Shown: in pieces, positions 1 through 44,449 of the stretch
Layout: each line of letters begins with the position of its first letter
How positions within the stretch are numbered: the stretch's first letter is position 1
Origin: Candidatus Latescibacterota bacterium
Lineage (GTDB): Bacteria > Latescibacterota > Latescibacteria > Latescibacterales > Latescibacteraceae
DNA length: 49,303 nt
Direction of reading: 5' to 3'
Assembly (NCBI GenBank): GCA_016927495.1
Contig: JAFGMP010000259.1
Location: 1 to 49,303 of the forward strand
Program-made: the position numbers and the translations under genes
Notes under the pieces: generated by a model
The model's input: the letters and a program-made list of their open reading frames with translations, nothing else
What the model was told of the DNA's origin: nothing
The model's database searches: none

Positions 1-16
1 ATATAATATAATTAAT

Positions 17-1435
17 ATGATCTGGTACATTTTAAGAAGACAAACAATAAGATTATTTTTAAAAATGAAAGCTGTAGGAAAAAAATTAAAAGTTTTTAGA
101 TTAAATTACAGAATTTTTCGTAAAATTCTTAACCTTCCCATTACGATAAAATATTCATTAATAAAAACAGTATTCATATTTCATCCGTCAATTTTAAGTT
201 TTTTATGCAGAAATAGTTATATTATCAGAAAAAATTGGGCTCCCGCAAAAATTGTAAATAAAACTACTCCAAAAATTCTTCATGTAACGTGCAGTTTTGA
301 TTTGGGAGGCACTCAACGTCAAATATTGAATTTATGCAAAAACAGTGATAACAGGGACGTATATCACAGTACAATTGAAATTTTTCCAGAGTATAATTAT
401 TTGTACCGCAAAGGAATAAAGTTAGAAAGAAATAGATATGTTCGCGGGAATTATTTATTCAGATTTTTAGGCAGGTGGACATTAAACATTGCGTATCGGT
501 CACTTCAGGTAGTACAGATTTATAAACTTGTTCGTGATTTTCAAACCCTAAAACCAGATGTTGTTGTCGGCTGGGGGCATGAGGTGGCGATGTTAACTTT
601 TGTTGCTGCTACAGTTGTAAAAGTCCCTAAAATCTTATTCTGTATACGCACTGTTAATCCTTCATACGGATGGACTGGAATTGGTCCGCTTCTCTATAAA
701 GCCCATAAGAAAATGATCCCATATATTGATGGTGTTATTGTAAACAGCACTTTACTCCAACGCGATTATGCAGAATGGATGAATATTCCGGTTAATAAAG
801 TTCGAGTTTGTGCAAATGGTATTGAAACTCACCCATTGTCGCCGAAGGAAAGAAGTATCTCTCGAAAAAAAATAAGAAATCAATATAAAATTTATGAAGA
901 AGCAATAATAATAGTAAATATCGGGCGTTTTTCAAAAGAAAAAGGCCAGATAGTGATGGTTAAGGCTTTTGAAAAATTGATCAATTTATGGCCAGAGAAA
1001 AAATTATATTGTTTGCTGTGTGGGGATGGTCCAACACAAAATGAAATCAAAAGTTATGTCAAAAATAATAATGTTCACAATGTTATTTTCACAGGACGAA
1101 TTAGTGATATTCATTTATACTTAAGTGCTGTCGATATTTTTGTGATGCCTTCGGATTTCGAGGGTATGCCAAATGCTATGATGGAGGCGATGTCCTATGG
1201 TTTGCCCTGTGTGTCAACAAACAATTCTGGCGTATTGGACATAGCTCGAGATAATATTGAAGCTTTGTATGTTGATGTTGGATCGGTTGAACAAATGTTT
1301 GAAAAACTTTCATATTTAATCGAAAATCCAAATGAATGTAAGAGATTGGGATTAAAATCAGAAAAAAGGCTTAAAGAATTCTCCATTCAAAAAATGATTG
1401 ATACATTTAATAGACATTTGGAGGAGATTCTTTGA
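17..1435 (+). CDS. Glycosyltransferase, GT-B fold, family 4 (group 1) type
   Basis: 472-aa ORF. The C-terminal half has the GT4 signature region VMPSDFEGMPNAMMEAMSYGLPCVSTNNSG. The N-terminal Rossmann half starts at KILHVTCSFDLGGTQRQ. The first ~90 aa are Lys/Ile-rich and may not all be coding, with an alternative ATG at 65. The gene lies at the window edge. Confidence 0.8.
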   Translation: MIWYILRRQTIRLFLKMKAVGKKLKVFRLNYRIFRKILNLPITIKYSLIKTVFIFHPSILSFLCRNSYIIRKNWAPAKIVNKTTPKILHVTCSFDLGGTQRQILNLCKNSDNRDVYHSTIEIFPEYNYLYRKGIKLERNRYVRGNYLFRFLGRWTLNIAYRSLQVVQIYKLVRDFQTLKPDVVVGWGHEVAMLTFVAATVVKVPKILFCIRTVNPSYGWTGIGPLLYKAHKKMIPYIDGVIVNSTLLQRDYAEWMNIPVNKVRVCANGIETHPLSPKERSISRKKIRNQYKIYEEAIIIVNIGRFSKEKGQIVMVKAFEKLINLWPEKKLYCLLCGDGPTQNEIKSYVKNNNVHNVIFTGRISDIHLYLSAVDIFVMPSDFEGMPNAMMEAMSYGLPCVSTNNSGVLDIARDNIEALYVDVGSVEQMFEKLSYLIENPNECKRLGLKSEKRLKEFSIQKMIDTFNRHLEEIL

Positions 1436-1614
1436 CTTCAACACATTAAAAATGTTTGGTTAACATTAAGATAAAAATGGTTTTGAAAAAGAATTTTGTT
1501 TCAAAATGAAAATTATTTGTAAAAATTACCCCCAGTTATTTTATCCGGAAAAATTATTTCAGGAAGAGAGAATACGGTTTTTTAGAATCAAAAGTTGCAT
1601 TTTTACTTGATGAA

Positions 1615-2420
1615 GTGAGTGGCTTGCGAAGCCTGGTCAGGTATCTCGTTGCAGAAAAAATGGGTGATATGCCTGTTATGCAACAAACCAAAGACAGTTT
1701 CGAATTTCAGTGGGACCGGCTCCCCGAAGGATATCAGCTGTTGAGCAGCGATACCTGGAAAAGTGCCGTTATAGATACTATATGCAATTTTTCAGATTTT
1801 ACAGCAGAATGGTTTAAAGGTAAAAAGGTGATGGATGCAGGTTGTGGCCGAGGCCGGTGGACATATGGTTTTGGTAAGTTAGGTGTAGAAAGTTGCGTTT
1901 CTTTTGATATTTCAGATACAGGTGTAGCTGAAACAAATAAAGTAGCAGAAGAATTTGGTGAAAATTTCAAGGTTTACAAAAAAAACATTCTTGATGATTT
2001 GGGATTTTCTGAAGATTTCGACATTGTTTGGTGCTTTGGTGTACTGCATCATACCGGGAATACATATAAAGGTTTTAAAATCTGATAAAATATGTAAAAC
2101 CGGGTGGTTTTTTATTTTTAATGCTGTATGGCGAACCGAGGGCAAATGATTTGGGGGATTACAACTATTATCATGAAATATTCGATATGCGCTGTAAAAC
2201 CAAAAATTTACCCTTTGAGGAAAAAGTTAAAGTACTCGCACAAAAATATGATAAGGATCACTTACATGGATATTTTGATGCTATTTCTCCTGAAATTAAC
2301 GATCTCTATCGGTGGGATGAGATAGTCGGCTGGTTGATAAATGCAGGTTTCGAAAATATAAAACGCACATTACCCGATCATCCGAATCATCATATTATTG
2401 CGCGGAAAAAACTTACCTGA
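1615..2420 (+). pseudogene. Class I SAM-dependent methyltransferase interrupted by a single-base frameshift
   Basis: ORF 1615..2085 (frame 1) has motif I VMDAGCGRGRWTYGF and DIVWCFGVLHHTGN, then stops at 2083. Frame 3 is open from 2079 and reads NLIKYVKPGGFLFLMLYGEP..., the expected continuation of the fold, running to 2420. One extra A in the TTTTAAAA run (2073..2080) would give GFKNLIKYVKPGG and one protein of ~268 aa. Confidence 0.75.
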
Positions 2421-2432
2421 GAGGCTCGATTT

Positions 2433-4325
2433 ATGTGCGGAATTTTCGGAATGTGTTTGCTTGACGGCAAATCTTCAGATACTGTTACCGGACAGGTGAA
2501 AAAAGGTGTGGAGTTACTGCGTCACCGCGGGCCAGACGAATTCGGTATTGAAGCTCGTGAGAGTGTATGTTTTGGGCATGCACGATTATCGATTATCGAT
2601 CTCGAAGGCGGCCATCAACCTATGTGGGACATCACGAAAAAAGGCATGGTCTGTTATAACGGCGAGGTATATAATTTCAGAGAAATACGTCATGAACTCG
2701 AAAAGCTCGGATACAGGTTTGCCTCACGCTCCGATACGGAAGTTGTATTAAATGCCTATCTGGAATGGGGCGCCGAATGTGTTACTCGTTTCAGGGGGAT
2801 GTTTGCATTTGCTGTTTTTGATGTGAAAAAGAAAACGGTATTATTTGCTCGGGACCGTCTTGGTATAAAACCACTTTTCTATACTATTCATAATGGCTCT
2901 CTCTGTTTTTCCAGTGAACTCGAATCACTCTACCGTACAATCGGTCCCTTTGAGATGGACATTGAATCGCTCGATGATTACTTAAACTGGCAGTATATAC
3001 ATGCTCCGAAAACCATTTACAAGGATGTTCGTTCTCTACCGCCAGCTCACCTGCTTGAAATCGATCTTAACTCAGGAAAAATCAATGAAAAACGGTACTG
3101 GAATCTGAATTTCAGGGAAGACCGTACTCTTTCTGTCGATGATTGGCGCCATCTTTTAGATGAAAAAGTCAGAGAGGCTGTGGATATACGTCTGGTGAGC
3201 GATGTACCGTTCGGAGCATTCCTGAGCGGCGGTATCGATTCAAGTCTTGTGACCGGATATATGGCAGAAATAATGGAGCAGCCGGTCAAAACGTTCAGTA
3301 TCGGTTTCGAGGAAAGTGATTTTTCAGAACTGGATTATGCAAACAGGGTCGCTGAAATAAATCGGACGGAACACCATACCGAAATAGTTAAGGCCGAGTC
3401 ATTGAGCTTACTGCCCATGCTTGTTCGTCACTACGGCCAGCCGTTTGCCGATTCATCTGCTATCCCGACATACTATGTTTCACGGATGGCGCGGAAAAAT
3501 GTTAAAATGGTGTTAAGCGGTGATGGCGGTGATGAAAATTTTGCGGGCTATAACAGCTATGAAACGGTCATCAGAGAACTGTATCGTACATACAATGACC
3601 GTGCGCTGACAATGAAAAAACGTATACTTCGTCTGGGTTTCAACTATTTCTGGAAATTTAAGCAGTGGGCGCAACTTGGTGATCTGACCGACAAGGCATA
3701 TGAGCTTCATTGTTATACAGCACGTCATTTTTCACCTATTGAACGCAGAAATCTTTTCCGGCAGGAATATCGGAGTTATGTACGTGATTTTAATGACGAG
3801 CGGAGGGCGCTGATGAATATCGGGAGGCAGCCGCTGATCAGCAAGCTACAGAATCTTGATTTAATGGCATATCTGCCGTTTGATATTCTGACCAAAGTCG
3901 ATTGTGTTTCTATGGCAAATTCTCTGGAGGTACGAGTACCACTTCTCGACCATATTTTAGTAGAAACCGCTGCAACAATGCCCTCGGAATATAAATTTAA
4001 AAAAGAGATAATTGACGGTACAGTAAACTATGATAAAAAATTCATTTTGAAACAATTGGCTTTGCAGCGATATCCTTCCGATATTATCTACCGGCCAAAA
4101 ATGGGATTTGGAGTACCTCTTGGAATCTGGTTTGCGACAACTTTGCAACAACAAATCAGAGAAAAATTGCTTAAGTCCGAATTTCTTCCCTGTCTTTTTT
4201 CAATGAAACATATCGAAAAAATCGTAGATATGCACTCTGAAACCGCCGACTTTTCGACCAAACTCTGGAATTTACTTTTTCTTGAGGAATGGATGAGCAG
4301 CCATCATGACTCCTTTCCATCTTAA
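2433..4325 (+). CDS. asnB: Asparagine synthase (glutamine-hydrolysing) family amidotransferase
   Basis: 630 aa. N-terminal MCGIFG (Cys2 Ntn glutaminase), HRGPD, and the synthetase PP-loop FLSGGIDSS. Length and domain order are typical of AsnB. The context suggests a glycan-modifying paralogue. Confidence 0.93.
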   Translation: MCGIFGMCLLDGKSSDTVTGQVKKGVELLRHRGPDEFGIEARESVCFGHARLSIIDLEGGHQPMWDITKKGMVCYNGEVYNFREIRHELEKLGYRFASRSDTEVVLNAYLEWGAECVTRFRGMFAFAVFDVKKKTVLFARDRLGIKPLFYTIHNGSLCFSSELESLYRTIGPFEMDIESLDDYLNWQYIHAPKTIYKDVRSLPPAHLLEIDLNSGKINEKRYWNLNFREDRTLSVDDWRHLLDEKVREAVDIRLVSDVPFGAFLSGGIDSSLVTGYMAEIMEQPVKTFSIGFEESDFSELDYANRVAEINRTEHHTEIVKAESLSLLPMLVRHYGQPFADSSAIPTYYVSRMARKNVKMVLSGDGGDENFAGYNSYETVIRELYRTYNDRALTMKKRILRLGFNYFWKFKQWAQLGDLTDKAYELHCYTARHFSPIERRNLFRQEYRSYVRDFNDERRALMNIGRQPLISKLQNLDLMAYLPFDILTKVDCVSMANSLEVRVPLLDHILVETAATMPSEYKFKKEIIDGTVNYDKKFILKQLALQRYPSDIIYRPKMGFGVPLGIWFATTLQQQIREKLLKSEFLPCLFSMKHIEKIVDMHSETADFSTKLWNLLFLEEWMSSHHDSFPS

Positions 4326-5520
4326 AACATTTATCAATCGTTTCCCGGTTTTAAAAAATACGGCACGGTTTTTCTTTAAATTATACGAGAACTCAGTCTG
4401 GAATCTTTTCACTCTGTATTTTAAACTGTATGGCAGACATCGATTTTTTACGGCTGATAAACCTAAAGAAGTACGGTCTGTTTTGCATGTTTCGGTTCTG
4501 AGCCACAAACCATATATGCTCTCACTGTTGATGCGGCAAAAAGGATTGAAATCAGAATATATGGCGGTACATGCGGAATCAGGCTGGCTGCAGGTTGGTG
4601 ATAAGGGATATGATTATAATATTCCATGGAATATGTCAGGTTTGATATTTCGTCCTTTCATTACGCTCCATTTTTTCTGGAACATCATGCGTCGCTATGA
4701 TGTGATTCATTATCATTTTGCTTCTTTTCTCACTTATGATGGCCGTGAACTTTTTTATCTGAAATTGATGGGTAAAGTGATTGTCGTTCATTTTCGCGGT
4801 TGTGATTTACGGCAAAAGAGTGAGAATAATATGAAAAATCCCGAATTGAACTGCTGCCAGGAATGTGAATATCCCAACGGCAGTTGTGAAAATGAGGATC
4901 AGATGCTACGAATACGACTGGCACGAAAATATGCCGATCTGTTATTTGTCACGACGCCGGATCTGCTTGATTTCCTACCTGAAGCCGAGCATATACCGTT
5001 TATTATGCCGTTTGGTGTTGACATCAATAATATAGAGCCTGCTCCCCGAACTCCCGGTACTTTTCGTGTTGTTACCAGTTCAAACCATGACAGTGTCGAT
5101 GGTACGAAATATATCAGAAATGCCGTAAAACGCCTTCAACGTGAAGGCAGATCAATTGAACTTATCGAGGTACATAATACGCCCTATGAAAAAGCTTTGT
5201 CGATTTACAAGAGCGCTGATATATATGCAGGGAAACTATTGATGGGCTATTATAACAATGCCAATATCGAATGCATGATGATGGGTGTTCCTTGTTTGAG
5301 TTACATAAGAGATGAATTTTTTGATCGTATTCCGGATTGTCCTATAATTATAACTCGTCCCGAAACTGTTTATCAAAAATTATGTGAATATATGGATAAA
5401 CCTGAAGATTTGCAGACAGCAGCCAATAAAGGAATAGCCTTTGTAAAAAAATATCACGATCCTGATATAATTCTCCGCCATCTTATAAAAAGATATAATG
5501 AAGTACTCCAATCTTTCTGA
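4306..5520 (+). CDS. Hypothetical protein, possibly a GT-B-like glycosyltransferase
   Basis: 404-aa ORF overlapping the asnB stop by 20 nt. The C-terminal segment YKSADIYAGKLLMGYYNNANIECMMMGVPCLSYI resembles the GT1/GT4 C-terminal nucleotide-sugar region. It has an unusual Cys cluster, NCCQECEYPNGSC. I recognise no confident family. Confidence 0.4.
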   Translation: MTPFHLKTFINRFPVLKNTARFFFKLYENSVWNLFTLYFKLYGRHRFFTADKPKEVRSVLHVSVLSHKPYMLSLLMRQKGLKSEYMAVHAESGWLQVGDKGYDYNIPWNMSGLIFRPFITLHFFWNIMRRYDVIHYHFASFLTYDGRELFYLKLMGKVIVVHFRGCDLRQKSENNMKNPELNCCQECEYPNGSCENEDQMLRIRLARKYADLLFVTTPDLLDFLPEAEHIPFIMPFGVDINNIEPAPRTPGTFRVVTSSNHDSVDGTKYIRNAVKRLQREGRSIELIEVHNTPYEKALSIYKSADIYAGKLLMGYYNNANIECMMMGVPCLSYIRDEFFDRIPDCPIIITRPETVYQKLCEYMDKPEDLQTAANKGIAFVKKYHDPDIILRHLIKRYNEVLQSF

Positions 5521-5696
5521 AATACACACAAATATTGACTTTTAAAAAAAATAAGTTATTATTTTTAATAAAATAGGCTCACTTTAACCTTTATCCTTTT
5601 CATTTTCAGCTTAAGAAGAAAAATACATACATCACAAAGCAAAACCGGGCAGTCAATTGAATTCTGAGATTTTAAATCCGGAGAAACTGTTTCGCT

Positions 5697-8600
5697 ATGG
5701 ATATAAACAGTCTGCTTCAGTTCATACGACAAAATCCTCTTTTTTCGATCTACAGCGACGAAGAAATGTCCAGCCTGCTCGAAACCGCGGAACTTGAATC
5801 TGTCAGTGCAGGCCAGCTTGTCTTTGAGCAGGGCGATGTTGGCGATACCTTTTACATTGTATACAGCGGTAAAATAAGGATACTTCACAAAGACGAAAAT
5901 CAAAAGGAAGTTAACCTCGGTGTTATATCAAAGGGTGATCATTTTGGTGAAACTGCCCTAATAACCGACCATCCGAGAAATGCGGCCGCACGGGCTGTTG
6001 ATGACAGCGTGCTATTATCCATCCATAAAGATTCATTCTATAAATACCTCCTCCATAGTTCAAAACAGAGAGAATATTTCGACAAATTTATTAGATTCAC
6101 CTCGGTTCACCGATTTTTAAAATCCTGCACCGATCTTTCGGCTGTCCCGGTTAAAGAACTGAAAGAACTCATTGATAATTTCAAACCTGAATTTTTCAGT
6201 GAGGGGGAGGCTGTATTCCGGCAGGATACTATACCGGACAAATTTTATTTAATCGAACGTGGCAAGATTAAAGTTGTACGGTGGGAAGAAGCAAAACCGG
6301 AAATAATTAATTTTTTGCACGAAGGTGATTTTTTCGGAGAAAAAGCGCTTTTTGAAGAAACCGTCCGTTATGCTGATATTATCTGTCTGACCGATTGCCA
6401 CCTTTTCTCCATAAGTCGCGAAGCATTTAACGAGTTTATTATCAGATCCCCTAAGCTGAAAAAAGTGATTGAGGACAGAATTCAATCCTACAGTACCGAA
6501 AAACCTCCGATTCCTTATCATGAAATGATAAAACAGGAACTTGCCGGTCTGAAGGACATAAAAGCTGAAAAGAAACTCCCTGATGAGGATTTGGAGCCGA
6601 CTGTTGAAGATAAAAACCGCTTAAAGAAACTGACTTCGTATTATCATCAGCACATTCGTTTTCCCTTTATAATGCAGCACGATGAAATGACTTGCGGCAC
6701 CACATGTATCATGATGATCGCAAAATTTTACGGCAAAAATTTCTCATCGAGCAGACTTCGGGAACTTGCGCATGTGGATATCAGCGGTTCATCGCTGGCA
6801 AATCTTGCATCAGCGGCTGAACAACTCGGATTTGCAACACGAGGTTTGAAAATTGATTACGATACCCTTATATCCGCCCATCACCCGTGCATCATTCACT
6901 GGCAGGGGTATCACTATGTCGTCATTTACAAAATTACAGACAGTAATGTTTGGGTATCCGATCCGGCTTTGGGGCTGAGAAAATACACAAGAGACTATTT
7001 CAACAACAACTGGAATGGTATCACACTTACTCTTGAACCGACTCCGGAATTTGAAACAAAAAATGAAGACAAATCTTCGCTTAAAAATTTCATGCAATTT
7101 ATTCTGCCTTACAAACAATTGCTCCTTGAAATTTTTGCCGCTTCCCTTTTACTGAACGTTTTCGGACTGGCAACACCTATTTTTACCCAGAATGTGATCG
7201 ATAAGGTTATTGCACACAGTAATGTGACAATGCTCAACATCATGATCATCGGGATGATCATCGTCCTTATATTCCGGATTTTGGTGAGTATCATTCGTCA
7301 GTATCTGATCGTACATACAAGTATGAAAATCGATTTGAGAATGCTCGTCACATTTTACAAGCATATGCTTGCATTACCATTAGGATATTTTAAAGTCAGA
7401 AAAATAGGCGACTTCATATCCCGGTTCGGTGAGAATTTGAAAATACGCAATTTTATGACCAATATTGCCCTTACACTTATCCTCGATACGATTTTAATTA
7501 TTGTGTATCTGTCGCTGATGTTTTATTACAATGCCCATATGACTGGTCTTGTGTTGTTATTCTTACCGTTATTCATCGGAATTACCATTGGATTTTCACC
7601 GATTCTCAAACGGTTTAATATTGACTCTTTTGCTGCAAATGTCGAATCAAGGTCTCATTTGATCGAATCTATGAATGCAATCGATACTGTCAAAGCCATG
7701 AATATCGAGTATCCGATCCGCTGGAAGTGGGAGGATAAGTTCATAAAAAGTCTGAATATTGATTTTAAACTGAACATGGCTACGATGTATTTCAACTCAT
7801 TCGGTGATTTTGTGGGTACTATAAGCTCAACAATTATTCTCTGGTTTGGTGCGCTCAAAGTGATGCAGGGTGTGCTTAGTGTCGGTGAACTCATGGCATT
7901 TATGTCGTTGATGGGAAGCGTAATATCACCGATAAACAGGATTATTATGGCGTGGGACGATGTACAACAGACTCTTGTATCGGTTGACAGATTGAATGAT
8001 GTGTTTACTGCAAAAGCGGAATTTCCCGAAACAATGGATGATGAAACAGGATTGGTATTTAAAGAGCCTCGTGGTGAAATTGCATTCGATGAGGTATATT
8101 TTCGTTATGGTGGTGAAGATGAGGCTTATATTCTGTCAAATATTACATTTAAAATCGCTCCGGGTCAGAAAATCGCAATAGTCGGCAGAAGCGGATCCGG
8201 CAAATCAACACTGGTGAGGCTTCTTGCGCGGTTCTACGATGTGACAGAGGGTAAAATTACGATTGATAATTTCAGTATTAATAATATAAACCTCGCGAGC
8301 CTGCGTAAAATTGTCGGCTTTGTTCTTCAGGAGAGTTTTCTGTTTAACGGAACTATCCGTGAGAATATATCGCTGGGTGACCCGGAAGAATCGTTGGAAA
8401 AAGTAATAGAGGCAGCAAAAATGGCAAATTCTCACGAATTTATATCGAATCTCGCACTCGGCTACGAAACTAAAGTCGGAGAAAGCGGACTTCAGCTTTC
8501 CGGTGGCCAGAAACAGAGAATTGCCATTGCCCGTGTGCTCTATTCCAAACCGAGGATCATAGTTCTTGATGAGGCAACAAGTTCACTCGATACAGAGTCC

Positions 8601-8804
8601 GAAAGAGCTATTCAGAAAAATATGCAGGCAATTCTTGCAGACAAAACGGCAATAATAATTGCTCATAGATTGAGTACGGTTCGAAATGCGGATAAAATTA
8701 TTGTTCTCGATGACGGTGAGATAGTTGAAATGGGAACTCACGAGGAATTGATGGACAAACATGGCCTGTACCATTACCTGAACCATCAACAATTAAATTT
8801 ATAA
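5697..8804 (+). CDS. Peptidase-containing ABC exporter (PCAT) with two N-terminal cyclic-nucleotide-binding domains
   Basis: 1035 aa. Two CAP/Crp-type cNMP domains (GDHFGETALITDHPRNAAARA and GDFFGEKALFEETVRYADIIC). C39 peptidase domain with Cys333 (QHDEMTCGTTC, nt 6693..6695) and His406 (GYHYVVIY). Six-helix exporter TMD. NBD with Walker A GRSGSGKST, signature LSGGQKQR and Walker B IIVLDEATS. Confidence 0.9.
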   Translation: MDINSLLQFIRQNPLFSIYSDEEMSSLLETAELESVSAGQLVFEQGDVGDTFYIVYSGKIRILHKDENQKEVNLGVISKGDHFGETALITDHPRNAAARAVDDSVLLSIHKDSFYKYLLHSSKQREYFDKFIRFTSVHRFLKSCTDLSAVPVKELKELIDNFKPEFFSEGEAVFRQDTIPDKFYLIERGKIKVVRWEEAKPEIINFLHEGDFFGEKALFEETVRYADIICLTDCHLFSISREAFNEFIIRSPKLKKVIEDRIQSYSTEKPPIPYHEMIKQELAGLKDIKAEKKLPDEDLEPTVEDKNRLKKLTSYYHQHIRFPFIMQHDEMTCGTTCIMMIAKFYGKNFSSSRLRELAHVDISGSSLANLASAAEQLGFATRGLKIDYDTLISAHHPCIIHWQGYHYVVIYKITDSNVWVSDPALGLRKYTRDYFNNNWNGITLTLEPTPEFETKNEDKSSLKNFMQFILPYKQLLLEIFAASLLLNVFGLATPIFTQNVIDKVIAHSNVTMLNIMIIGMIIVLIFRILVSIIRQYLIVHTSMKIDLRMLVTFYKHMLALPLGYFKVRKIGDFISRFGENLKIRNFMTNIALTLILDTILIIVYLSLMFYYNAHMTGLVLLFLPLFIGITIGFSPILKRFNIDSFAANVESRSHLIESMNAIDTVKAMNIEYPIRWKWEDKFIKSLNIDFKLNMATMYFNSFGDFVGTISSTIILWFGALKVMQGVLSVGELMAFMSLMGSVISPINRIIMAWDDVQQTLVSVDRLNDVFTAKAEFPETMDDETGLVFKEPRGEIAFDEVYFRYGGEDEAYILSNITFKIAPGQKIAIVGRSGSGKSTLVRLLARFYDVTEGKITIDNFSINNINLASLRKIVGFVLQESFLFNGTIRENISLGDPEESLEKVIEAAKMANSHEFISNLALGYETKVGESGLQLSGGQKQRIAIARVLYSKPRIIVLDEATSSLDTESERAIQKNMQAILADKTAIIIAHRLSTVRNADKIIVLDDGEIVEMGTHEELMDKHGLYHYLNHQQLNL

Positions 8805-8813
8805 GAATCACAT

Positions 8814-10175
8814 GTGAACTGCATGGAAAAAAATAACAAACATATTCCTCCGGATGAAAAACAAGGGATAATAACCGTAACACCGATTGATTCACCTTCC
8901 GGTAATTATCTTGTGGAAGAGCATTTACAGAGAATGCCGAATATCTTTGCGCGAGGCCTGTTTTATATAATCATTCTGCTCTTGGTGGTAACACTTATAT
9001 ATACTTATCTGGCAAAAGTCGATGTTGTGGCGGAATGCAGATCCGTTGTCCGGCCTGCCTCGCATATAATAAGGATTCTTTCGGACAGAAACGGGTATAT
9101 TGAACGGGTGTATGTTGCTGAAGGAGAATATATAAAAAAAGGAATGCCGTTATTTTATATCCGTTCCAAAGAGGCAGTGGGATATACCTCAAAAGTGGAC
9201 GAACTGCTGCGTACCATACCGCTTCAGGAACAGTATTTCGATATGCAGATATCGGTCGTCAAAGATCGTTTGAAGCAGCGTGAAAATCAGAACCGGAATA
9301 CACTCAAAATACTGCGCCTTAAATTGGATCAGAACCGGCTTTCTTTTGAATCGATAGAATCGGATATCGAATATTGGGAAAATCAGGTCAAAATACTGGC
9401 CGGTGAGGCTGAACGTACAAAAAACGGTGTGTCAAAGGGATATATGTCGGTTACGCAATATAATGAAATGATAAGCGAACTTGGGAGAGCGAAAACCGAT
9501 GTAAAAAAATTACAGTCCGAAAAAGAAATAAGTCTTAAAGAAAAAACAATCATAGAAGAGGAAATTGCAAAAGAAATATCGGATTATGAGAATGAAAAAG
9601 CTATTCTTGAAAAGGAAATCAACAATCTCGAATTGCAAAAAGGAACAATGTTACATTCGATGCGAAGCGAACTCGGCATGAATAAAAAAATGTTGACTCT
9701 GAATAATGAGGTATCTGATAGTAATACAGATAATGAAGAAAAAGGAAATATTATCCGTGCGGAAAAATCCGGCGCTGTTTCTGAACTGTATTTTAGAAAC
9801 AGGGGAGAATATGTGTTAATGTCTGATTTGCTTTGCACTATAGTGCCTGAAGACAGCCCTCTGTATATGGATGTAGTTGTCGCAAATAAAGATATAGGAT
9901 TTATTGAAAAAGACATGCAAATAAAATATAAGTTCGATGCTTTCCCATATACAGATTATGGAATTGTTCGGGGTAATGTGGTCACCGTATCACCTTCAGC
10001 GGTTGAAGATCAAACGAAAGAGTTTGTGTATCATGTTCATGGATCGCTTGACCAACAATCTTTTAAAATTAAAGACAAACAATATCCGATAAAGGCAGGA
10101 ATGACTGCTACTGCCGAATTGGTTAAGGAAAGGAAAAATATTCTTTCGATATTGATTGGAAAATTAAAAAAATAG
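8814..10175 (+). CDS. HlyD-family periplasmic adaptor (membrane fusion protein)
   Basis: 453 aa. It has one N-terminal TM helix (LFYIIILLLVVTLIYTYLA), a long Lys/Glu-rich coiled-coil middle and a C-terminal beta-barrel segment (PIKAGMTATAELV). It starts 10 nt after the ABC exporter stop. Confidence 0.85.
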   Translation: MNCMEKNNKHIPPDEKQGIITVTPIDSPSGNYLVEEHLQRMPNIFARGLFYIIILLLVVTLIYTYLAKVDVVAECRSVVRPASHIIRILSDRNGYIERVYVAEGEYIKKGMPLFYIRSKEAVGYTSKVDELLRTIPLQEQYFDMQISVVKDRLKQRENQNRNTLKILRLKLDQNRLSFESIESDIEYWENQVKILAGEAERTKNGVSKGYMSVTQYNEMISELGRAKTDVKKLQSEKEISLKEKTIIEEEIAKEISDYENEKAILEKEINNLELQKGTMLHSMRSELGMNKKMLTLNNEVSDSNTDNEEKGNIIRAEKSGAVSELYFRNRGEYVLMSDLLCTIVPEDSPLYMDVVVANKDIGFIEKDMQIKYKFDAFPYTDYGIVRGNVVTVSPSAVEDQTKEFVYHVHGSLDQQSFKIKDKQYPIKAGMTATAELVKERKNILSILIGKLKK

Positions 10176-10201
10176 AGGCGTTATGAATAGGGGAAAAAAA
10201 T

Positions 10202-10948
10202 ATGTTGATATCATATTCTCATGGGAAAATCTATCCGGAAGAAATTGTAAAATATCTTGGATTGACCGGCAGGTCATACATGATTATAGCAGAAATCATC
10301 AAGAACAAGGTTACCGTTGAAAAAGCCGGGGATTTTGGGTTGGTCGCATCGGATGAAGAATTACAGAAGTATGCAGATAACTTCAGAAGCCTTCTCAATC
10401 TGTATTCGACGAATGATATGTATCGCTTTCTGGAAAATTCAGGGCTTACGGTTGATGATTTCGAAGCTTTTTGTGAAACTGCAATCCTTGTCGGTCATCT
10501 TAAAAATTACCTGTCAGGCGAAGAAAAAATTAAAGGATATTTTGTCAATAACCGTGCTGATTTTGATCTTGTGAGAATATCATCGATAACCGTTAAGGAG
10601 GAAAATCTGGCAAAAGACTTAATAATGCAGGTTGAAGAGGATGGTGAGGATTTTCATGTGCTTGCAAGAAAATATTCAACGGATGATACTACCAGATATA
10701 CTGGAGGATATATTGGTCTGGTTTCCCGCAAAATTTTTCCTCCGGAAATAACGGCTAAGCTGTTTAATGCGTCCGAAGGAGAATTGATCGGTCCGTTTCA
10801 AAGGGATGATGAGTACCAATTATTATTAGTTGAGGAGGTGTTGAAAGCCGAGCTGAATGAAAATGTCAAAAATGAAATTAAAGATATTATTTTCAATGAA
10901 TGGGTATCATCGTTTTTGAAAAACGGCATAAAAATTACGGAAAATTAA
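10202..10948 (+). CDS. PpiC/parvulin-type peptidyl-prolyl isomerase with SurA-N-like N-terminal domain, no signal peptide
   Basis: 248 aa. Rotamase-like segment FHVLARKYSTDDTTRYTGGYIGLVSRKIFPPEITAKLFNASEGELIGPFQRDDEYQLLLVEEV. The N-terminal ~110 aa are helical and paralogous to the next ORF. No hydrophobic N-terminus. Confidence 0.8.
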   Translation: MLISYSHGKIYPEEIVKYLGLTGRSYMIIAEIIKNKVTVEKAGDFGLVASDEELQKYADNFRSLLNLYSTNDMYRFLENSGLTVDDFEAFCETAILVGHLKNYLSGEEKIKGYFVNNRADFDLVRISSITVKEENLAKDLIMQVEEDGEDFHVLARKYSTDDTTRYTGGYIGLVSRKIFPPEITAKLFNASEGELIGPFQRDDEYQLLLVEEVLKAELNENVKNEIKDIIFNEWVSSFLKNGIKITEN

Positions 10949-11018
10949 CTCAAATAATAAAACATTCAGGTTTATGTAACTATGACTTTTTATGTATTCC
11001 AGCCCGGAGGATTTCATC

Positions 11019-11429
11019 ATGGCAGACATTAACGAGCTTGAAGTAGCTGTTGCTGAAGTTGTAGATTACCTGAGATTATCGGGTGATTTTGGTTCGGCTC
11101 TCCGTGAAGTGGTCAAGCGAAAAATCACAGCGCAGGCAGCAAAGGAAAATGGTCTTACCGTGTCTGATGAGGAGTTGCAGAAAGGTGCGGATACATTTCG
11201 CATTGTTAACAACCTCAGCAAAGCCAGCGATACTGAGAACTGGCTCAAAATAATGGGCGTCAGTATTGACACGTTTGAGGAATTTCTCGAAACCAATCTG
11301 CTTATCAGTAAATTCAAGGATACTCTTGAAACCAAAGGGGATAAGCAAAAATATATCGATTCCGAAGCTATCAAGGAATCAGTCAGAGAAATGATTTATC
11401 AGGACTGGTTAGGTGAGCAATTGAAATAA
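11019..11429 (+). CDS. Stand-alone SurA-N-like domain protein, paralogue of the N-terminus of the preceding PPIase
   Basis: I moved the start to the ATG at 11019, 8 nt after GGAGG (11006..11010). By eye it aligns at ~35-40% identity to aa 12-105 of the 248-aa protein (YL.L.G...GL..SDEELQK.AD.FR...NL...D.FE.F.ET..L). It lacks a rotamase domain. Confidence 0.6.
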   Translation: MADINELEVAVAEVVDYLRLSGDFGSALREVVKRKITAQAAKENGLTVSDEELQKGADTFRIVNNLSKASDTENWLKIMGVSIDTFEEFLETNLLISKFKDTLETKGDKQKYIDSEAIKESVREMIYQDWLGEQLK

Positions 11430-11460
11430 TAGCAGTTTTTGATCAAAGCGGTTCCAATGA

Positions 11461-11492
11461 GCAGGGGCACAAAATTTTGAGCCCCTGCTTTT
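11461..11492 (+). terminator. Rho-independent terminator closing the exporter operon
   Basis: GCAGGGGC-acaaaattttga-GCCCCTGC (8-bp GC-rich stem) followed by TTTT. It sits 32 nt after the stop at 11429, between convergent genes. Confidence 0.7.
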
Positions 11493-11522
11493 GGATTTAT
11501 TAGTGATGAGGATTGTGTATTT

Positions 11523-14235: not shown

Positions 14236-15861
14236 TTATTTTGCAGCTACGGTTTCTCCTTCATATTCCCGTACAACACGGAATCCAACATCTTTGCTGT
14301 CTGAATACCACCATACGCTTTTAGGCGACTGCGGGTCGGTCATCATCCACCTGTCATGGTATGTTCTGTCGCGTCTTGCGGATCGCAAATCGGCCGGATC
14401 ACTGTTATAGGAACCGCCTCTTATGACATGTTCTTTTCCTGATGACGGGCCTTTAGGGTTGATGAGGACATCTTCGTTTGAATACTGAATGTATGCATCG
14501 GGTGCATACCAGTCGAGGCAGAATTCCTTAACATTACCTATCATATTATAAAGTCCCCATGGGTTGGGGCCTTTTTTATAGGGTGAATTGGTTCTGAAAT
14601 TGCTGTTTGTCTGTGACCACGCGAGAGAATCAACAGCGCTTGTGTCTTTTCTGAACGTTCTGTTTATCCATGACGTTCTCGTCAGTTTTTCAGGATCACC
14701 ATCAAAATAGTAAGGGCCCGTTGTTCCGGCGCGGCATGCATATTCCCATTCGGCCTCTGTGGGAAGTCTGAATTTTTTGCCGGTGACCTGTGACAGCCAT
14801 CTGCAGTAAGTCTCCGCCGCATGATGAGTCATGGTAATTGCCGGACGGTAACCTTTACCCCAACCCTGATCCGGCGAACCGTAGGGCGGTGTAGGCCCGG
14901 TTATGGCATCGACGCCTGCTGTATCGCTATTAGCGCTTATCGATGCTGTTTTGATGGTATCGGAACTTTCCGTGCCGGTTAAACCCGCTTCGTTTTTGCC
15001 CATTGTAGCCGTTCGTGAATAAAAGATATCGAATTCACGCCATGATACCTCGATTTCACCCATCCAAAACTGACTGACCTGAACTTTACACGGAGGTCCC
15101 TCATCGGGATTACGGAACGGCTCGTCTTCAGGGCTGCCCATGTTAAATGTCCCGGCTTCGATCGCAATCATATCGAATGTCACGTTGGTTCCCGGAATTG
15201 TCTGGGTATAATCTTTGAATTCATCGATATCAAACGGCCGTTCAGGTCGTTTAAATAATTCCTGTTCGCCAATAACAAACTCTTCCTCCACCGCTTCCTC
15301 ACGGTAATGGCCTACAGTTATGTGACAGTTGATACAGCGTAATTTATCAGTATTCTTCATGTAATATTCGTGTGCTTCGACACCTTTAGGAGTCAATTCA
15401 CGGCTGTATAGATCCTGATGACATCGAATACATGAACTGTCGTATGTGTAGGTTACTGCGTGTTCAAGCATCGATTTGGTATCCCAGTCAATGCTTTCCA
15501 CATCTTTGAATGCTGTGCTGTAAGCATCTCTTATTCCAAGACGGGCTTTTTCCGTAAAATAATACAGACCACCTGCCGGCAGGTGACATTCGACACAATG
15601 AATTACAACACCGCTTTCATTTTTATAATGTGTCGATTTTTTCCATGAATAATTTACATGCGGGTGGGCGTGGCACATATTACAGAAATCATCAGTCGAT
15701 GTATATTTAAGTCCTGCGTGACCAAGATATACTATTAACAGACCGAATACAAAACCAAGCAGTATTTGTGAAAATTTTTTAACTAATTTTAAGATTATTC
15801 CAAACAGAAATTTAATTATACTAAAAATAATGCTGATAGGCTTAAAAATTATTTTAATCAT
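14236..15861 (-). CDS. Fusion protein: NapC/NirT-type tetrahaem cytochrome c (N-terminal) and FGE/SUMF1-family domain (C-terminal)
   Basis: 541 aa. It has an N-terminal TM helix and four CxxCH sites (CNMCH aa 60, CVECH 89, CIRCH 144, CINCH 176) with NapC/NirT-like spacing. The C-terminal ~310 aa carry FGE-sulfatase hallmarks (RLPTEAEWEYACRAGT, NPWGLYNMIGNVKEF, RGGSYNS). Confidence 0.85.
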   Translation of the reverse strand: MIKIIFKPISIIFSIIKFLFGIILKLVKKFSQILLGFVFGLLIVYLGHAGLKYTSTDDFCNMCHAHPHVNYSWKKSTHYKNESGVVIHCVECHLPAGGLYYFTEKARLGIRDAYSTAFKDVESIDWDTKSMLEHAVTYTYDSSCIRCHQDLYSRELTPKGVEAHEYYMKNTDKLRCINCHITVGHYREEAVEEEFVIGEQELFKRPERPFDIDEFKDYTQTIPGTNVTFDMIAIEAGTFNMGSPEDEPFRNPDEGPPCKVQVSQFWMGEIEVSWREFDIFYSRTATMGKNEAGLTGTESSDTIKTASISANSDTAGVDAITGPTPPYGSPDQGWGKGYRPAITMTHHAAETYCRWLSQVTGKKFRLPTEAEWEYACRAGTTGPYYFDGDPEKLTRTSWINRTFRKDTSAVDSLAWSQTNSNFRTNSPYKKGPNPWGLYNMIGNVKEFCLDWYAPDAYIQYSNEDVLINPKGPSSGKEHVIRGGSYNSDPADLRSARRDRTYHDRWMMTDPQSPKSVWWYSDSKDVGFRVVREYEGETVAAK

Positions 15862-20056: not shown

Positions 20057-20105
20057 AACGATTATTTGACCTTAAAAAGTTATAATAATGATAATTATAT
20101 GATCT

Positions 20106-20174
20106 GTCATTCTGAACGAAGTGAAGAATCTGTTTTTTATTATTTTTGAGACTCTTCGTTTCAATCAGAGTGAC
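20106..20174 (+). repeat. 69-nt imperfect palindromic element, copy A (GTCATTCTGAACGAAGTGAAGAATCT / U-rich loop / GAGACTCTTCGTTTCAATCAGAGTGAC)
   Basis: Near-identical to 44280..44348. The left arm is 26/26 identical, the right arm 26/27, and both loops are 16 nt and T-rich. It lies 50 nt after the GH38 stop. Confidence 0.9.
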
Positions 20175-20211
20175 AAACAGCATTGTGAAATGGATTAATA
20201 AAGAGAAACAT

Positions 20212-29157: not shown

Positions 29158-29574
29158 TTATTTGTCGGTAATATATGCCTTTGTCCACAATGTAATTGTT
29201 TCAGCGAGTTCTATTGCTTTTTCTACTTCTTGTTTTGTTATCTCAGTCATATAGCCAGGATAGCGGGTTTCAACTGCGTATGGTGTCAAAATGCCAGCGT
29301 CCTCAAAATCGGAGGGTAAAGTAATACCGCTGATTTTCAGAATGTCAATTAGCTGGTAAATATCATATGTGAGGGGAAAATCAACATTAGAAAATAAAAG
29401 AATTGCTTTGAGTGATTTTTCAACTGCCTGTTGTGCATGAAAACATATTTGTTGTGAGAGTATATTGTCGGGTTCAATACCGAGTTTTGCATATCTTAAA
29501 TCACTCAGTGCATGCTTGAGCCATTCTTCCGGAGAATTGGGCAGGTACTTATCACGTGTCCAATTCATAAACAA
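29158..29574 (-). CDS. HEPN domain protein (putative toxin of a HEPN/MNT pair)
   Basis: 138 aa. Pattern FHAQQAVEKSLKAILL...YAVETRYPGY is typical of stand-alone HEPN proteins. It overlaps the upstream nucleotidyltransferase gene by ~20 nt. Confidence 0.8.
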   Translation of the reverse strand: MFMNWTRDKYLPNSPEEWLKHALSDLRYAKLGIEPDNILSQQICFHAQQAVEKSLKAILLFSNVDFPLTYDIYQLIDILKISGITLPSDFEDAGILTPYAVETRYPGYMTEITKQEVEKAIELAETITLWTKAYITDK

Positions 29575-29920
29575 CCTTACCTTTTTTTATTGCTTCACGA
29601 TATATTAATCCTGGTGTCTGAGCAAATTTTTGAAGTTGTTCTTCCTGTAAGACAATAATATCAAGCGACATCATGATTCCTCTTAATGCTTGCCGTATAC
29701 GGACACTCTCGCTGTGCGGATTTTTGACATAATTTTCTGTGACAACCAGTATATCCAAATCGCTGTTAGAATCCATGTATCCGGTAACATAAGAGCCAAA
29801 AAGTATTACTTTTTTAGGATTACTTACTTCAATGATTTTTTTTACAGCAGTTTCGACTTTTTGTGGGGTAATTTCCCACAATTTAGATGTTGAATATATA
29901 TCTGTTTTAGTCATGTTCAT
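29552..29920 (-). CDS. Minimal nucleotidyltransferase (MNT, Pol-beta superfamily), putative antitoxin
   Basis: GS..(D/E).D motif: VILFGSYVTGYMDSNSDLDILVV. The start was moved to MNMTKTD (29920). The 21-aa track extension upstream of it is unsupported. Confidence 0.8.
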   Translation of the reverse strand: MNMTKTDIYSTSKLWEITPQKVETAVKKIIEVSNPKKVILFGSYVTGYMDSNSDLDILVVTENYVKNPHSESVRIRQALRGIMMSLDIIVLQEEQLQKFAQTPGLIYREAIKKGKVVYELDT

Positions 29921-30000
29921 TATTTCTCTTATGTAAAAACCGGTTTTTTTTGTTATGATACTCGAAAATAATGAGTTATACAATTAATAAATTACATGTC

Positions 30001-37300: not shown

Positions 37301-37678
37301 ACTCTGCCGTGGGAACTGGAGAATATATCGATATCGGGTTCATCTATAAAATGTGATCATGTCGGAAACAGCACAATGTTCGGTCTGCCACCGGGTGAAT
37401 TTACATTGAAGATGGTTGGTAACAAGTTGATACTTGACCGGGAGATTTTCGCAGTCCGCGTGAAAGTGGTCGATCGAAACAATCAACCGGTACAATGGGT
37501 GCATGTTTTCCGCGATTTACCCGGAGATAGCAGAACGCAGTTTCAGGGCGCTACCGATGCTCAGGGTTTTCTGACTATGAGATGGGATGGGGAAGAAAAG
37601 CAGAGCATCACGTTGTCCAAAGGTAAGCAAAAAATCAGAAACACAGTGCATCCGGGGGAACAGATAATTACGTTTTAA
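34391..37678 (+). CDS. Large multidomain protein: heparinase II/III-like lyase region, GATase1/ThuA-like module and C-terminal beta-sandwich
   Basis: 1095 aa with an N-terminal anchor (IIVCFLIVLVSILCF). It has a His-rich motif, TMHHHPNHGDFSLIWRGYPVMLTRG, like the heparinase II/III C-terminal domain. The mid region IGLIETDG..FDRIIVGHFAV..GGVCYW resembles ThuA or the beta-gal trimerisation module. The tail VRVKVVDRNNQPV is CarboxypepD_reg-like. The alternative start is 34421. Confidence 0.55.
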   Translation: MTSTVIVFLIMNNIKKYRTIIVCFLIVLVSILCFPVMQSEGTVLLTDAELVQAKKNIQTEPLMSYFRNLSIGDGGQAAPVLYLLTGEKRFALKAQETVHNNLEFLRKNIPYMVNIWILRTPGPVVSALLAYDMTKDSGVYSQVEISEIQETLTWCITHFLNEGTDHIGKGFLYQTDYIPEDMEDWVIANMNIHRLLAVGLYAMVFPDEPRSDEIIRYTEDYFERILSLGSRSGGTFAENPRYMGGVLQELYMLAAALKNAGKRDFFQDERLIRMFGFFAESIPAPGMQGKYRPTMIAADDAHWWENQSEILSWAASRYYKTDPTRVGEWIWCWKNLGSLMTDKSLLFVNPDIEPVKPDYTSYLPGMGYVILRESFADPDETFFLGTFGPELGTSNRTMHHHPNHGDFSLIWRGYPVMLTRGCASYVWSRRMRDQTDFSHSVVTFDGAGESSVIPEKKYDLPALETNATFDETLVRDYYPDGITNYVSANSFDYVAGHVRNWGIGLPAPFNVRHFIHLKPDVFVIWDQVRSPYPLQWNMHLPAESVRQNGRSIEIVNHDGVEVMIDFLQDEPLDFTLDWPLESIRREWPMVLSCPYGKGMFIFNALDITRQVIENNHEGAIKILENLLSYPAQPKHIGLIETDGQTETVLNKLGFSCELLGYEDLDGDLSRFDRIIVGHFAVLVRDRDMLDYREKLWKYVENGGVCYWAYQFAWGWKPGDTSGPGYFPYTLMVGEGTSVLWGEGIELDRPLTMDNDSIWKGPNHINPEDWLGWQVGAPDTLKLLHYNQRPNTDRARNIPVYYSDYWNVHASALRTYNIDVPQTRSRFGPYRWIKVHHEPSDDYFAVLRLRKKGLPGAEQFAEILKGTENETIIHHDDSYWRILLGNHPGNTGNLTVLKYDKSQVESNSARSKNEIPDILKQNAILPREMLFADMKDIETGGLKFSFEHPATFLYDASTQAGRISMLDGGKVTLPWELENISISGSSIKCDHVGNSTMFGLPPGEFTLKMVGNKLILDREIFAVRVKVVDRNNQPVQWVHVFRDLPGDSRTQFQGATDAQGFLTMRWDGEEKQSITLSKGKQKIRNTVHPGEQIITF

Positions 37679-44221: not shown

Positions 44222-44279
44222 TCCGAGTAATTAAACTTTTTCAATAATGGTAAAAAACCCTGTCATTTTAATATCTCTT

Positions 44280-44348
44280 GTCATTCTGAACGAAGTGAAG
44301 AATCTCGTATTTATTTTTTTTGAGACTCTTCGTTTCACTCAGAGTGAC
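44280..44348 (+). repeat. 69-nt imperfect palindromic element, copy B
   Basis: GTCATTCTGAACGAAGTGAAGAATCT-cgtatttatttttttt-GAGACTCTTCGTTTCACTCAGAGTGAC. It lies 59 nt after the aminopeptidase stop and has the same orientation as copy A. Confidence 0.9.
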
Positions 44349-44449
44349 AGTCTATGAATTATAGTCATAAGAACCATATTTTTAATTTACGAAAATTTTT
44401 TATGAATTATTGGAAATAATAGGATTTACCCAAAACAACTAAAAAAACT

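Follow-up and report, generated by a model that had tools for sequence, protein, structure and literature searches.

What does a peptide exporter carry when no cargo gene accompanies it, and does an exporter equipped with nucleotide sensors and foldase-like partners represent a new kind of secretion system? We addressed this question for four consecutive genes on contig JAFGMP010000259.1 of a Candidatus Latescibacterota bacterium (assembly GCA_016927495.1), of which the whole analysed stretch of 49,303 nucleotides is called the window below. The genes encode a long-type peptidase-containing ABC (ATP-binding cassette) transporter (PCAT), an HlyD-family adaptor, a foldase-like protein that we call Rot, and a paralogue of Rot that we call SurAN. 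We conclude that they probably constitute a single long-type PCAT export module, a non-cyanobacterial case of an architecture described in cyanobacteria, the cargo genes lying elsewhere or past the end of the contig. The genes and the domains of the transporter are as follows.

5697..8804 (+): long-type PCAT, 1035 residues, recognised by Pfam, NCBIfam, motifs and hydrophobic segments
5796..6050 (+): cNMP-binding domain A of the transporter, residues 34-118, with cassette FGETALITDHPRNAA, Glu85 and Arg94
6150..6482 (+): cNMP-binding domain B of the transporter, about residues 152-262, with cassette FGEKALFEETVRYA, Glu215 and Arg224
6510..6689 (+): low-confidence linker between sensor and peptidase, residues 272-331, probably flexible (AlphaFold2)
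6660..7046 (+): C39 peptidase domain, residues 322-450 (Pfam and residue motifs)
7125..8804 (+): ABC exporter membrane domain (residues 477-745) and ATPase domain (Pfam and motifs)
8814..10175 (+): HlyD-family periplasmic adaptor, 453 residues from GTG 8814 or 450 residues from ATG 8823
10202..10948 (+): Rot, signal-less PrsA/SurA-like foldase, 248 residues (Pfam, NCBIfam, PDB, AlphaFold2, Foldseek)
11019..11429 (+): SurAN, Rot paralogue without the parvulin insert, 136 residues (alignment to Rot)

The argument begins with the transporter, in which an earlier reading of the DNA (the original prediction) had placed two cNMP-binding domains, a C39 peptidase, an exporter membrane domain and a complete nucleotide-binding domain within one polypeptide. 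Pfam recovered all of these on the 1035-residue open reading frame (ORF) above gathering cut-offs: cNMP_binding over two stretches (158.7 bits), Peptidase_C39 over residues 322-450 (127.5 bits), ABC_membrane over residues 477-745 (153.2 bits) and ABC_tran over residues 813-962 (119.7 bits). The resulting order is tandem cNMP-binding domains, linker, C39 peptidase, six-helix exporter membrane domain and ATPase. The C39 catalytic pair is intact exactly where it had been read, with Cys333 at nt 6693-6695 and His406 at nt 6912-6914, and it is joined by the oxyanion-hole Gln327 and the triad Asp422; these four residues are conserved in every homologue that includes the C39 domain. The ATPase motifs are likewise complete (Walker A at 830, Q-loop at 878, LSGGQ at 934, Walker B at 954 and H-loop at 989). 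Judged by its domains and catalytic residues, the protein therefore appears to qualify as a PCAT. The NCBIfam models scored below their cut-offs: TIGR01193 (bacteriocin_ABC) fell short by less than 1 bit (523.0 against 523.85), TIGR03796 reached 554.6 bits against 853.3, and the best score belonged to the HlyB-type TIGR01846 (628.3 bits against 725.55). An identical transporter gene was found on a 12.7-kb Logan contig that lies wholly within the window.

If the four genes form one module, then they should stay together in other genomes. Related loci were gathered by look-ups of transporter relatives and by scanning species-representative genomes with a Rot alignment of three sequences, and the 15 loci obtained (L001 to L015) were mapped with the window proteins as queries; L018 and L020 were reached later through cargo genes, and L022 and L023 through distant Rot relatives. 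Over residues 1-460 the closest relatives of the transporter are 54-66% identical and come from metagenome-assembled genomes (MAGs) labelled Deltaproteobacteria, Thermodesulfobacteriota or Desulfobacteraceae. An unchanged order of PCAT, HlyD, Rot, SurAN is seen in L001/L009, L007 (Syntrophaceae), L008 (Candidatus Adiutricales) and L018, in agreement with the predicted single operon-like module, and SurAN orthologues occupy the equivalent position in L001, L007, L008, L009, L016 and L018. Other loci depart from this order. The two sensor domains form a separate 303-residue protein in L004, which has no SurAN; L002 also has none and adds three radical S-adenosylmethionine (SAM) genes. The PCAT gene is parted from HlyD-Rot by 6-8 kb of other genes in the Pyrinomonadaceae (L010-L012), while the Desulfosporosinus locus L013 runs PCAT, short HlyD, Rot, two cargo genes and a SurAN fusion, and the Bacillota locus L020 holds Rot, cargo and a SurAN fusion with no PCAT within 10 kb. 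A gene for the outer-membrane factor OEP adjoins the module in L007 and L022; in the latter both PCAT and OEP are nearby, and L023 has neither. The occurrence of the four-gene set in Desulfobacterota-type MAGs in the same order, and its rearrangement in Acidobacteriota and Bacillota, are new. For the genes that flank the module in the window, no homologue of any was found in L001-L015. The conserved unit is thus exactly four genes, and the upstream glycosyltransferase, methyltransferase and AsnB-like genes were excluded as parts of the system, as were the downstream genes. In the two Bacillota loci the SurAN module (L013 8776-9645, L020 10206-11066) is fused behind a Cys-rich N-terminal domain, giving proteins of 286-289 residues, and a Crp-family regulator gene precedes the cluster.

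The relatives also indicate what such a module would carry. An active C39 domain had been taken to imply a cargo with a double-glycine leader, and the relatives carry such cargo: in nine of the ten Rot-containing loci that had been found independently of the leader, a leader-bearing ORF lies no more than 10 kb away, in up to 10 tandem copies. ORFs matching the leader hidden Markov model (HMM) were present in L001, L002, L004, L007, L008 (seven), L009, L010 (four) and L013 (two), and L012 gave a weak match, with two Gly-Gly peptides readable. Cargo stands directly downstream of SurAN in L007, L018 and L001/L009, and ten tandem small ORFs, each beginning MARIKIEDLPKDMEISREEMRKILGG, stand upstream of the module in L004. 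A database search with full cargo alignments returned at least 261 proteins. The best 120 of these are 37-104 residues long and all named "hypothetical protein", one of them with a precomputed Pfam domain. The motif is present in 117 of these 120, and its Gly-Gly ends exactly at residue 26 in 108 of the 117. The consensus leader, typically of 26 residues, is M-A-R-I-K-I-[KE]-D-L-P-K-D-x-K-I-S-[KR]-E-E-M-K-K-V-x-G-G (in short, MARIKI[KE]DLPKDxKISxEEMKKVxGG). Its C-terminal half, with hydrophobic residues at -4, -7 and -12, Glu at -8 and the Gly-Gly, follows the classical double-glycine pattern of characterised PCAT substrates, whereas the N-terminal RIKIxDLP box is an addition to that pattern; its Asp-Leu-Pro stands at position -17 in 116 of 117 proteins. 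Curated models (TIGR04149 with 22.1 bits against a cut-off of 25, and TIGR01847) matched the leader below threshold. The cores behind the leader are diverse, with a median of 44 residues and 9% Pro.

The SurA-like genes are linked to the cargo as well. All three cargo genes that were looked up on long contigs adjoin a Rot gene, and because L020 has Rot and cargo in the absence of a PCAT, the SurA-like proteins are tied to the cargo no less closely than to the transporter. Several loci further contain tailoring enzymes, namely B12-radical SAM proteins, a LanB dehydratase, methyltransferases, a JmjC-type protein and GT2-TPR proteins, which suggests that the module serves both unmodified small proteins and products resembling peptides that are ribosomally synthesised and modified post-translationally (RiPPs).

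A number of individual proteins around the leader deserve mention. The cargo core at L008 7505-7759 matches Tox-PAAR-like (38.6 bits, above the cut-off), that at L007 10665-10847 resembles the first ~30 residues of Hcp (a weak match to Pfam T6SS_HCP, E 0.059), a similar Hcp-start likeness of the core at L018 11733-11897 was judged by eye only, and the database match P0270 has a type III secretion needle domain (PF09392). Beside cargo genes in three loci (L001 15515-15712, L004 4675-4878 and L018 18820-19026 on the minus strand) lies a Phd/YefM-like protein of 65-69 residues whose N-terminus (KIKIKDLEPIAATKAK) mimics the leader start; no counterpart of this protein was found in the window. Two B12/radical-SAM proteins of a cargo-bearing cluster (L016 3980-4396 and 6720-8144) also start in leader-like fashion (MARIRIGDL... 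and MRIRIADL...), and the RIKIxDL box might tag enzymes as well, for a shared binding partner.

We then compared the module with described systems. Wang, Fewer and Sivonen sorted 145 cyanobacterial bacteriocin clusters into seven groups in 2011 (PMC3140520; restated in PMC4558948), and in this scheme a long-type transporter, with an N-terminal extension of ~300 residues carrying CAP_ED before the C39 domain, marks groups I, II and VI (PMC3140520, PMC4558948). HlyD occurs in every group, and a rotamase-domain 'SurA' in groups I, II and VI (PMC3140520). Group V has a separate protein of two CAP_ED domains (PMC3140520, PMC4558948), to which the separate two-domain sensor protein of L004 can be likened. 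Group I is the commonest, with 57 clusters that have a mean of 0.35 adjacent precursors and occur in nearly all genomes surveyed (PMC3140520). The window module matches groups I, II and VI in its long-type CAP_ED-C39 transporter, adjacent HlyD and adjacent rotamase 'SurA', and, as is usual in group I, it has no adjacent precursor. HetP-like proteins beside group II clusters carry a KIxDLxYLEx10GG motif (PMC3140520), which resembles the KIxDLP...GG layout of the leader in our related loci. The module differs from the cyanobacterial clusters in its leader family, in its evidently non-cyanobacterial host, with the closest homologues in Desulfobacterota-type MAGs, and in its second, parvulin-less paralogue, which is unmentioned in PMC3140520 and PMC4558948.

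The one long-type PCAT to have been studied is HetC of Nostoc sp. PCC 7120, which acts in heterocyst differentiation and was characterised in 2024 (PMC10986499). Its protease and ATPase residues are essential, and deletion of its cNMP region abolishes function; its substrate is still unidentified and is not encoded nearby (PMC10986499). HetC is of nearly equal length to the window transporter and shares the layout of cNMP, C39 and ABC exporter parts, with Cys347/His420 corresponding to Cys333/His406 here. It has no membrane-fusion protein gene nearby, whereas the window operon has HlyD and two SurA-like genes. The better-known transporters PCAT1, ComA, LagD and CvaB have the same C39 catalytic set, six-helix exporter and ATPase, but the window transporter exceeds them by ~320 N-terminal residues with two sensor domains and by dedicated cytoplasmic foldase-like partners. 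For the latter the nearest studied relative is MirC, a TIGR04500 partner protein in the biosynthesis of rosaritide, a graspetide, whose cluster also contains a PCAT (PMC13097080). [quoted passage not shown] Rot and SurAN resemble it in being cytoplasmic, in the SurA-like chaperone part and in belonging to a peptide cluster with a PCAT; MirC differs in an extra N-domain, in having no parvulin-like fold and in its ATP-grasp ligase partner, an enzyme absent here.

These comparisons reduce the novelty that had been claimed. The original prediction was right that cNMP-fused exporters occur in cyanobacteria and that some neighbour PpiC-like genes (PMC3140520). It went too far in placing the architecture outside the known range of PCATs, since groups I, II and VI were defined in 2011 (PMC3140520, PMC4558948); in treating such exporters as having no known functional study, since for HetC protease activity, the need for its cNMP region and a nucleotide ligand have been established (PMC10986499); and in placing dedicated cytoplasmic chaperone partners outside the characterised paradigm, since the related MirC has been characterised (PMC13097080). 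Because an architecture with known cargo types was described in 2011, the system is not new as a kind, and this follows from the prediction's own measure of novelty. What is added to the 2011 description is the parvulin-less paralogue, the intact cyclic-nucleotide cassettes, the wider range of phyla, the 26-residue leader family and the linkage of SurA-like genes to cargo. Long-type PCATs are abundant and only HetC has been studied. The non-cyanobacterial relatives offer a cleaner system than HetC, with the module beside its cargo, a sharp 26-residue leader, canonical cassettes and SurA-like genes that track cargo even where the transporter is absent. Second-messenger gating of peptide export, the role of a foldase-like protein and the binding partner of the extra leader box thereby become testable. 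The window itself, as a cargo-less copy of a known module type, is of modest value, and the cargo-bearing relatives are the better experimental entry.

We propose the following mechanism. The cargo, a small protein or peptide, would be synthesised in the cytoplasm and would bear a double-glycine leader at its N-terminus. Rot and SurAN would bind the leader or hold the precursor and pass it on, to the transporter and, in clusters that have them, to tailoring enzymes. The C39 domain would cut after the Gly-Gly, and the ABC exporter, together with HlyD and an outer-membrane factor encoded elsewhere, would move the core peptide out of the cell. The tandem cNMP domains, finally, would tie cleavage or transport to a nucleotide second messenger. 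Three issues are taken up in turn, which are the ligand of the sensors, the function of Rot, and the missing cargo.

Regarding the ligand, the best PDB matches of the sensor region are the tandem cyclic-nucleotide-binding domains of PKG and PKA-R (E 1e-35 to 1e-24), and both phosphate-binding cassettes show the FGE...R.A pattern. Across 10 homologues F83, G84 and E85 of domain A are invariant and R94 is kept in nine, only L013 having no cassette Arg there; in domain B of the same homologues F213, G214, E215, R224 and A226 are all invariant. The ligand-contacting Glu and Arg, on which the original prediction had made its gating idea depend, are accordingly retained in both domains, and both cassettes look competent to bind cyclic nucleotides. 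In L001 and L009, which are near-identical and therefore count as one lineage, the gene directly upstream of the transporter encodes a CHASE2 class-III cyclase. Our inference is that the tandem PKA-R/PKG-like domains most likely make cleavage or transport dependent on a nucleotide second messenger. If, instead, the sensors bound ppGpp or another non-cyclic ligand, then export would be tied to the stringent response or nutrient state. This is what HetC would suggest: a fragment of its first 480 residues (cNMP and C39) bound GDP, GTP and ppGpp (Kd, the dissociation constant, 59 uM) and was not stabilised by cAMP or 2-oxoglutarate, and its cNMP region is the one whose deletion abolished function (PMC10986499). 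The more distant relative L022 points the same way, with a degenerate single extension resembling a cyclic-nucleotide-binding domain and having no cassette motif. The window cassettes, however, both retain the Glu and Arg that contact the ribose and cyclic phosphate in PKA/PKG-type domains, and the cyclase gene adjoining the transporter in L001/L009 is of the adenylate/guanylate type. A non-cyclic ligand is thus a serious possibility but, in our judgement, a doubtful one. The proposed structural prediction of the cNMP-C39 interface did not yield one: the AlphaFold2 model of residues 1-460 had confident domains and a disordered linker (predicted local distance difference test score, pLDDT, <50 at residues 272-274 and 287-331; predicted template modelling score, pTM, 0.53) and offers no basis for an interface between sensor and peptidase. 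At L005 10001-10879, with no transporter, HlyD or Rot gene nearby, two cNMP domains in tandem make up a protein of their own, with 51% identity to the window sensor region.

Regarding Rot, the second issue, Pfam reported a Rotamase match with SurA_N_3 below threshold, and for SurAN three SurA_N models below Pfam cut-offs. The domain searches suggested with the original prediction thus confirmed cNMP_binding, Peptidase_C39, ABC_membrane, ABC_tran, HlyD_3 and Rotamase and left the SurA_N models sub-threshold. An AlphaFold2 model of Rot built from 27 sequences (pLDDT 94.7) had PrsA and SurA as its best Foldseek matches (E 2e-11 to 1e-8; PrsA 2e-11, SurA 3e-10). Rot is accordingly predicted to share the fold of PrsA and SurA, a helical N- and C-terminal chaperone module with an inserted parvulin domain. 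SurAN, which most likely starts at ATG 11019, aligns with the N-terminal helices of Rot and also with its C-terminal helix, and what it lacks is precisely the parvulin domain. The fourth gene, read as a copy of the N-terminal domain, is therefore a stand-alone Rot paralogue as predicted and comprises the whole chaperone module rather than the N-terminal domain alone. Neither protein has a hydrophobic N-terminus (maximal 19-residue Kyte-Doolittle mean 1.1 for Rot and 0.87 for SurAN), and since Rot has no signal peptide or lipobox we place it in the cytoplasm, whereas PrsA and SurA are extracytoplasmic. In a full HMMER scan of 1.84 billion representatives with Rot, 81 clusters reached E <= 1e-30 and 709 clusters reached E <= 1e-10, and among the best 150 clusters most are 240-270 residues long and match nearly end to end. 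Rot represents a family of its own among cytoplasmic proteins of PrsA type, and its gene is linked to those of a peptide exporter and the cargo. TIGR04500 (PpiC_rel_mature) is the best NCBIfam match of both proteins, with 67.4 bits over model positions 134-327 for Rot and 52.5 bits over positions 92-194 of 340 for SurAN. These scores are far under the cut-off of 180 bits and rule out membership, the relationship being through the chaperone domain. Rot was also ruled out as a canonical PrsA, SurA or parvulin enzyme, given that it has no export signal and that the canonical parvulin His pair is missing, with His8 and His84 of Par10 (1jns) corresponding to Ser128 and Gln206.

If Rot were nonetheless a true prolyl isomerase acting on the cargo, at the Leu-Pro of the leader or in Pro-rich cores, then it would be a maturation enzyme and not a chaperone. 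The almost invariant leader Asp-Leu-Pro, the Pro content of the cores and a complete, confidently modelled parvulin fold are what such an enzyme would call for, and the rotamase protein was assumed by Wang et al. to act in modification (PMC3140520). Set against this, the columns of Ser128 and Gln206 vary across 27 members of the Rot family, the conserved neighbouring paralogue SurAN has no parvulin domain at all, and MirC works as a non-enzymatic partner (PMC13097080). We regard a true isomerase as unlikely, and the same holds for Rot and SurAN acting as conventional prolyl isomerases; most likely, we infer, they act in the cytoplasm by binding the leader or holding the precursor. This role invites a more specific suggestion. 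Par10 prefers Leu-Pro, and on that basis the parvulin pocket of Rot could plausibly take up the near-invariant leader Leu-Pro. Rot and SurAN might then be readers of the RIKIxDLP box, with a degenerate pocket possibly holding Leu-Pro, that feed the tailoring enzymes and a cAMP/cGMP-switched PCAT. We offer this version tentatively, as less likely than not. If it were true, then a second-messenger-gated, chaperone-fed peptide secretion pathway would extend across several bacterial phyla, and HetP-type KIxDL...GG proteins would be indicated as the missing substrates of HetC.

The third issue is the absence of cargo. A leader HMM of 26 positions, built from the related loci, was run on all six-frame segments of the 49-kb window, and the best hit (6.9 bits, E = 0.4) lay inside another gene. 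No small ORF lying mostly in intergenic DNA of the window shows a leader pattern of the Gly-Gly, Gly-Ala or Gly-Ser type, and regular-expression scans for double-glycine leaders in the six frames of the window were likewise negative. The window, which spans 5.7 kb upstream and 38 kb downstream of the module, thus contains no leader-bearing ORF, in agreement with the original prediction, which had read none in the ORF list or in the adjacent spacers. Since the module is intact and no cargo is present in the window, the cargo would be encoded elsewhere or beyond the contig start. The contig, which the window covers in full, begins inside a low-GC block (GC content 0.383 for 1-11492 against 0.447 for the remainder of the window), the sole other assembly with the transporter (the 12.7-kb contig) reaches no further, and a cargo gene may lie just beyond position 1. 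If the module were an orphan remnant that arrived without its cargo and tailoring genes on a low-GC island, or lost them later, then it would export nothing here. That would account for the low GC content of the block, for the want of a cargo, OEP or cyclase gene within 49 kb, and for the region behind SurAN, where the closest relatives (L007, L018 and L001/L009) have their cargo and the window has a terminator and a convergent, higher-GC gene of the major facilitator superfamily (MFS). An orphan remnant is nevertheless improbable. All four ORFs are full length with every catalytic, ATPase and ligand-contact residue intact, group I clusters are near-universal in the surveyed genomes despite their low mean number of adjacent precursors (PMC3140520), and in L004 the ten cargo genes stand upstream of the transporter, so that with a contig starting within the island the cargo may precede position 1.

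Classical type I secretion of a large uncleaved RTX or adhesin protein, with the N-terminal domain serving as a C39-like docking domain only, can be set aside as highly improbable, because in spite of the HlyB-type TIGR01846 as best NCBIfam model (628 bits, cut-off 725.55) and the HlyD adaptor, the catalytic set of Gln, Cys, His and Asp is complete while C39-like docking domains have no Cys, the relatives are flanked by small Gly-Gly-leader ORFs and not by giant repeat proteins, and the window has no RTX-like gene.

Several points weigh against the export module as we have described it. The placement with cyanobacterial group I and HetC rests on architecture and not on sequence comparison. A confident sensor-peptidase contact was sought in the AlphaFold2 model of residues 1-460 and none was seen, leaving allosteric coupling without structural support. 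The cyclase neighbour comes from the single L001/L009 lineage, and within the 49-kb window there is no cargo gene, outer-membrane factor (TolC/OEP) or cyclase. Loss of the parvulin histidines alone is no proof of lost isomerase activity, to judge from Pin1 mutant studies. Lastly, HetC, the sole studied long-type PCAT, was unresponsive to cAMP and bound ppGpp (PMC10986499).

The signals around the four genes are consistent with one transcription unit. The genes are co-directional, and the gaps between them, predicted at 10-70 nt, measure 9-18, 26 and 70 nt in order. The range of the first gap reflects the two possible starts of HlyD, of which ATG 8823, the start on the independently assembled Logan contig, is more likely than GTG 8814. 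The HlyD protein matches Pfam HlyD_3, scores 155 bits with TIGR01843 (below the cut-off of 208.65) and has, by hydrophobicity, a single N-terminal membrane helix at residues 40-73. Two further features bound the set.

5535..5562 (+): promoter-like site, TTGACT and TATTAT spaced by 16 nt, within the AT-rich 176 nt that precede the transporter gene
11459..11503 (+): terminator hairpin 11459-11490 with T-rich tail, from folding

The number of promoter-like sites in the region is not above shuffle expectation, and only the position of the listed one is suggestive. The strong terminator that had been predicted was borne out: the fold of 11430-11510 has -30.1 kcal/mol (z = -4.15), and 0 of 200 shuffles were equally stable. 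A pattern scan had overlooked this hairpin owing to its loop definition, and folding detected it. The convergent MFS gene ends at 11523, beyond the hairpin, which could terminate both it and the module.

The low-GC block 1-11492 may be a horizontally acquired island. From the contig edge it contains genes for a GT4 glycosyltransferase, a methyltransferase, an AsnB-like amidotransferase and a glycosyltransferase-like protein, and then the exporter module; the best model for the AsnB-like gene is the XrtA/PEP-CTERM amidotransferase (580 bits, below the cut-off of 817). The wider context comprises glycoside hydrolases, a sulfatase-maturase and DUF362 genes. An Rfam scan of the window found no riboswitch or other RNA family, and the window has no tRNA genes. 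For a 1095-residue ORF at 34391-37678 (+) Pfam gave no match at E <= 1e-5. An intergenic element of 71 nt occurs twice, in copies of 93% identity (20105-20175 and 44279-44349), with inverted ends (TGTCATTCTGAACGAAGTGAAGAATCT ... AGACTCTTCGTTTCA.TCAGAGTGACA), and looks like a repeat of the REP (repetitive extragenic palindromic) or MITE (miniature inverted-repeat transposable element) type. Among three paralogous DUF362 genes, at 29158-29983 (-), lies a HEPN and nucleotidyltransferase (MNT-type) toxin-antitoxin pair with a GC content of 0.33-0.37. Finally, a NapC/NirT multihaem cytochrome c domain and a domain of the FGE-sulfatase (sulfatase-modifying factor) type are combined in one ORF of 541 residues at 14236-15861 (-), which is an unusual pairing.

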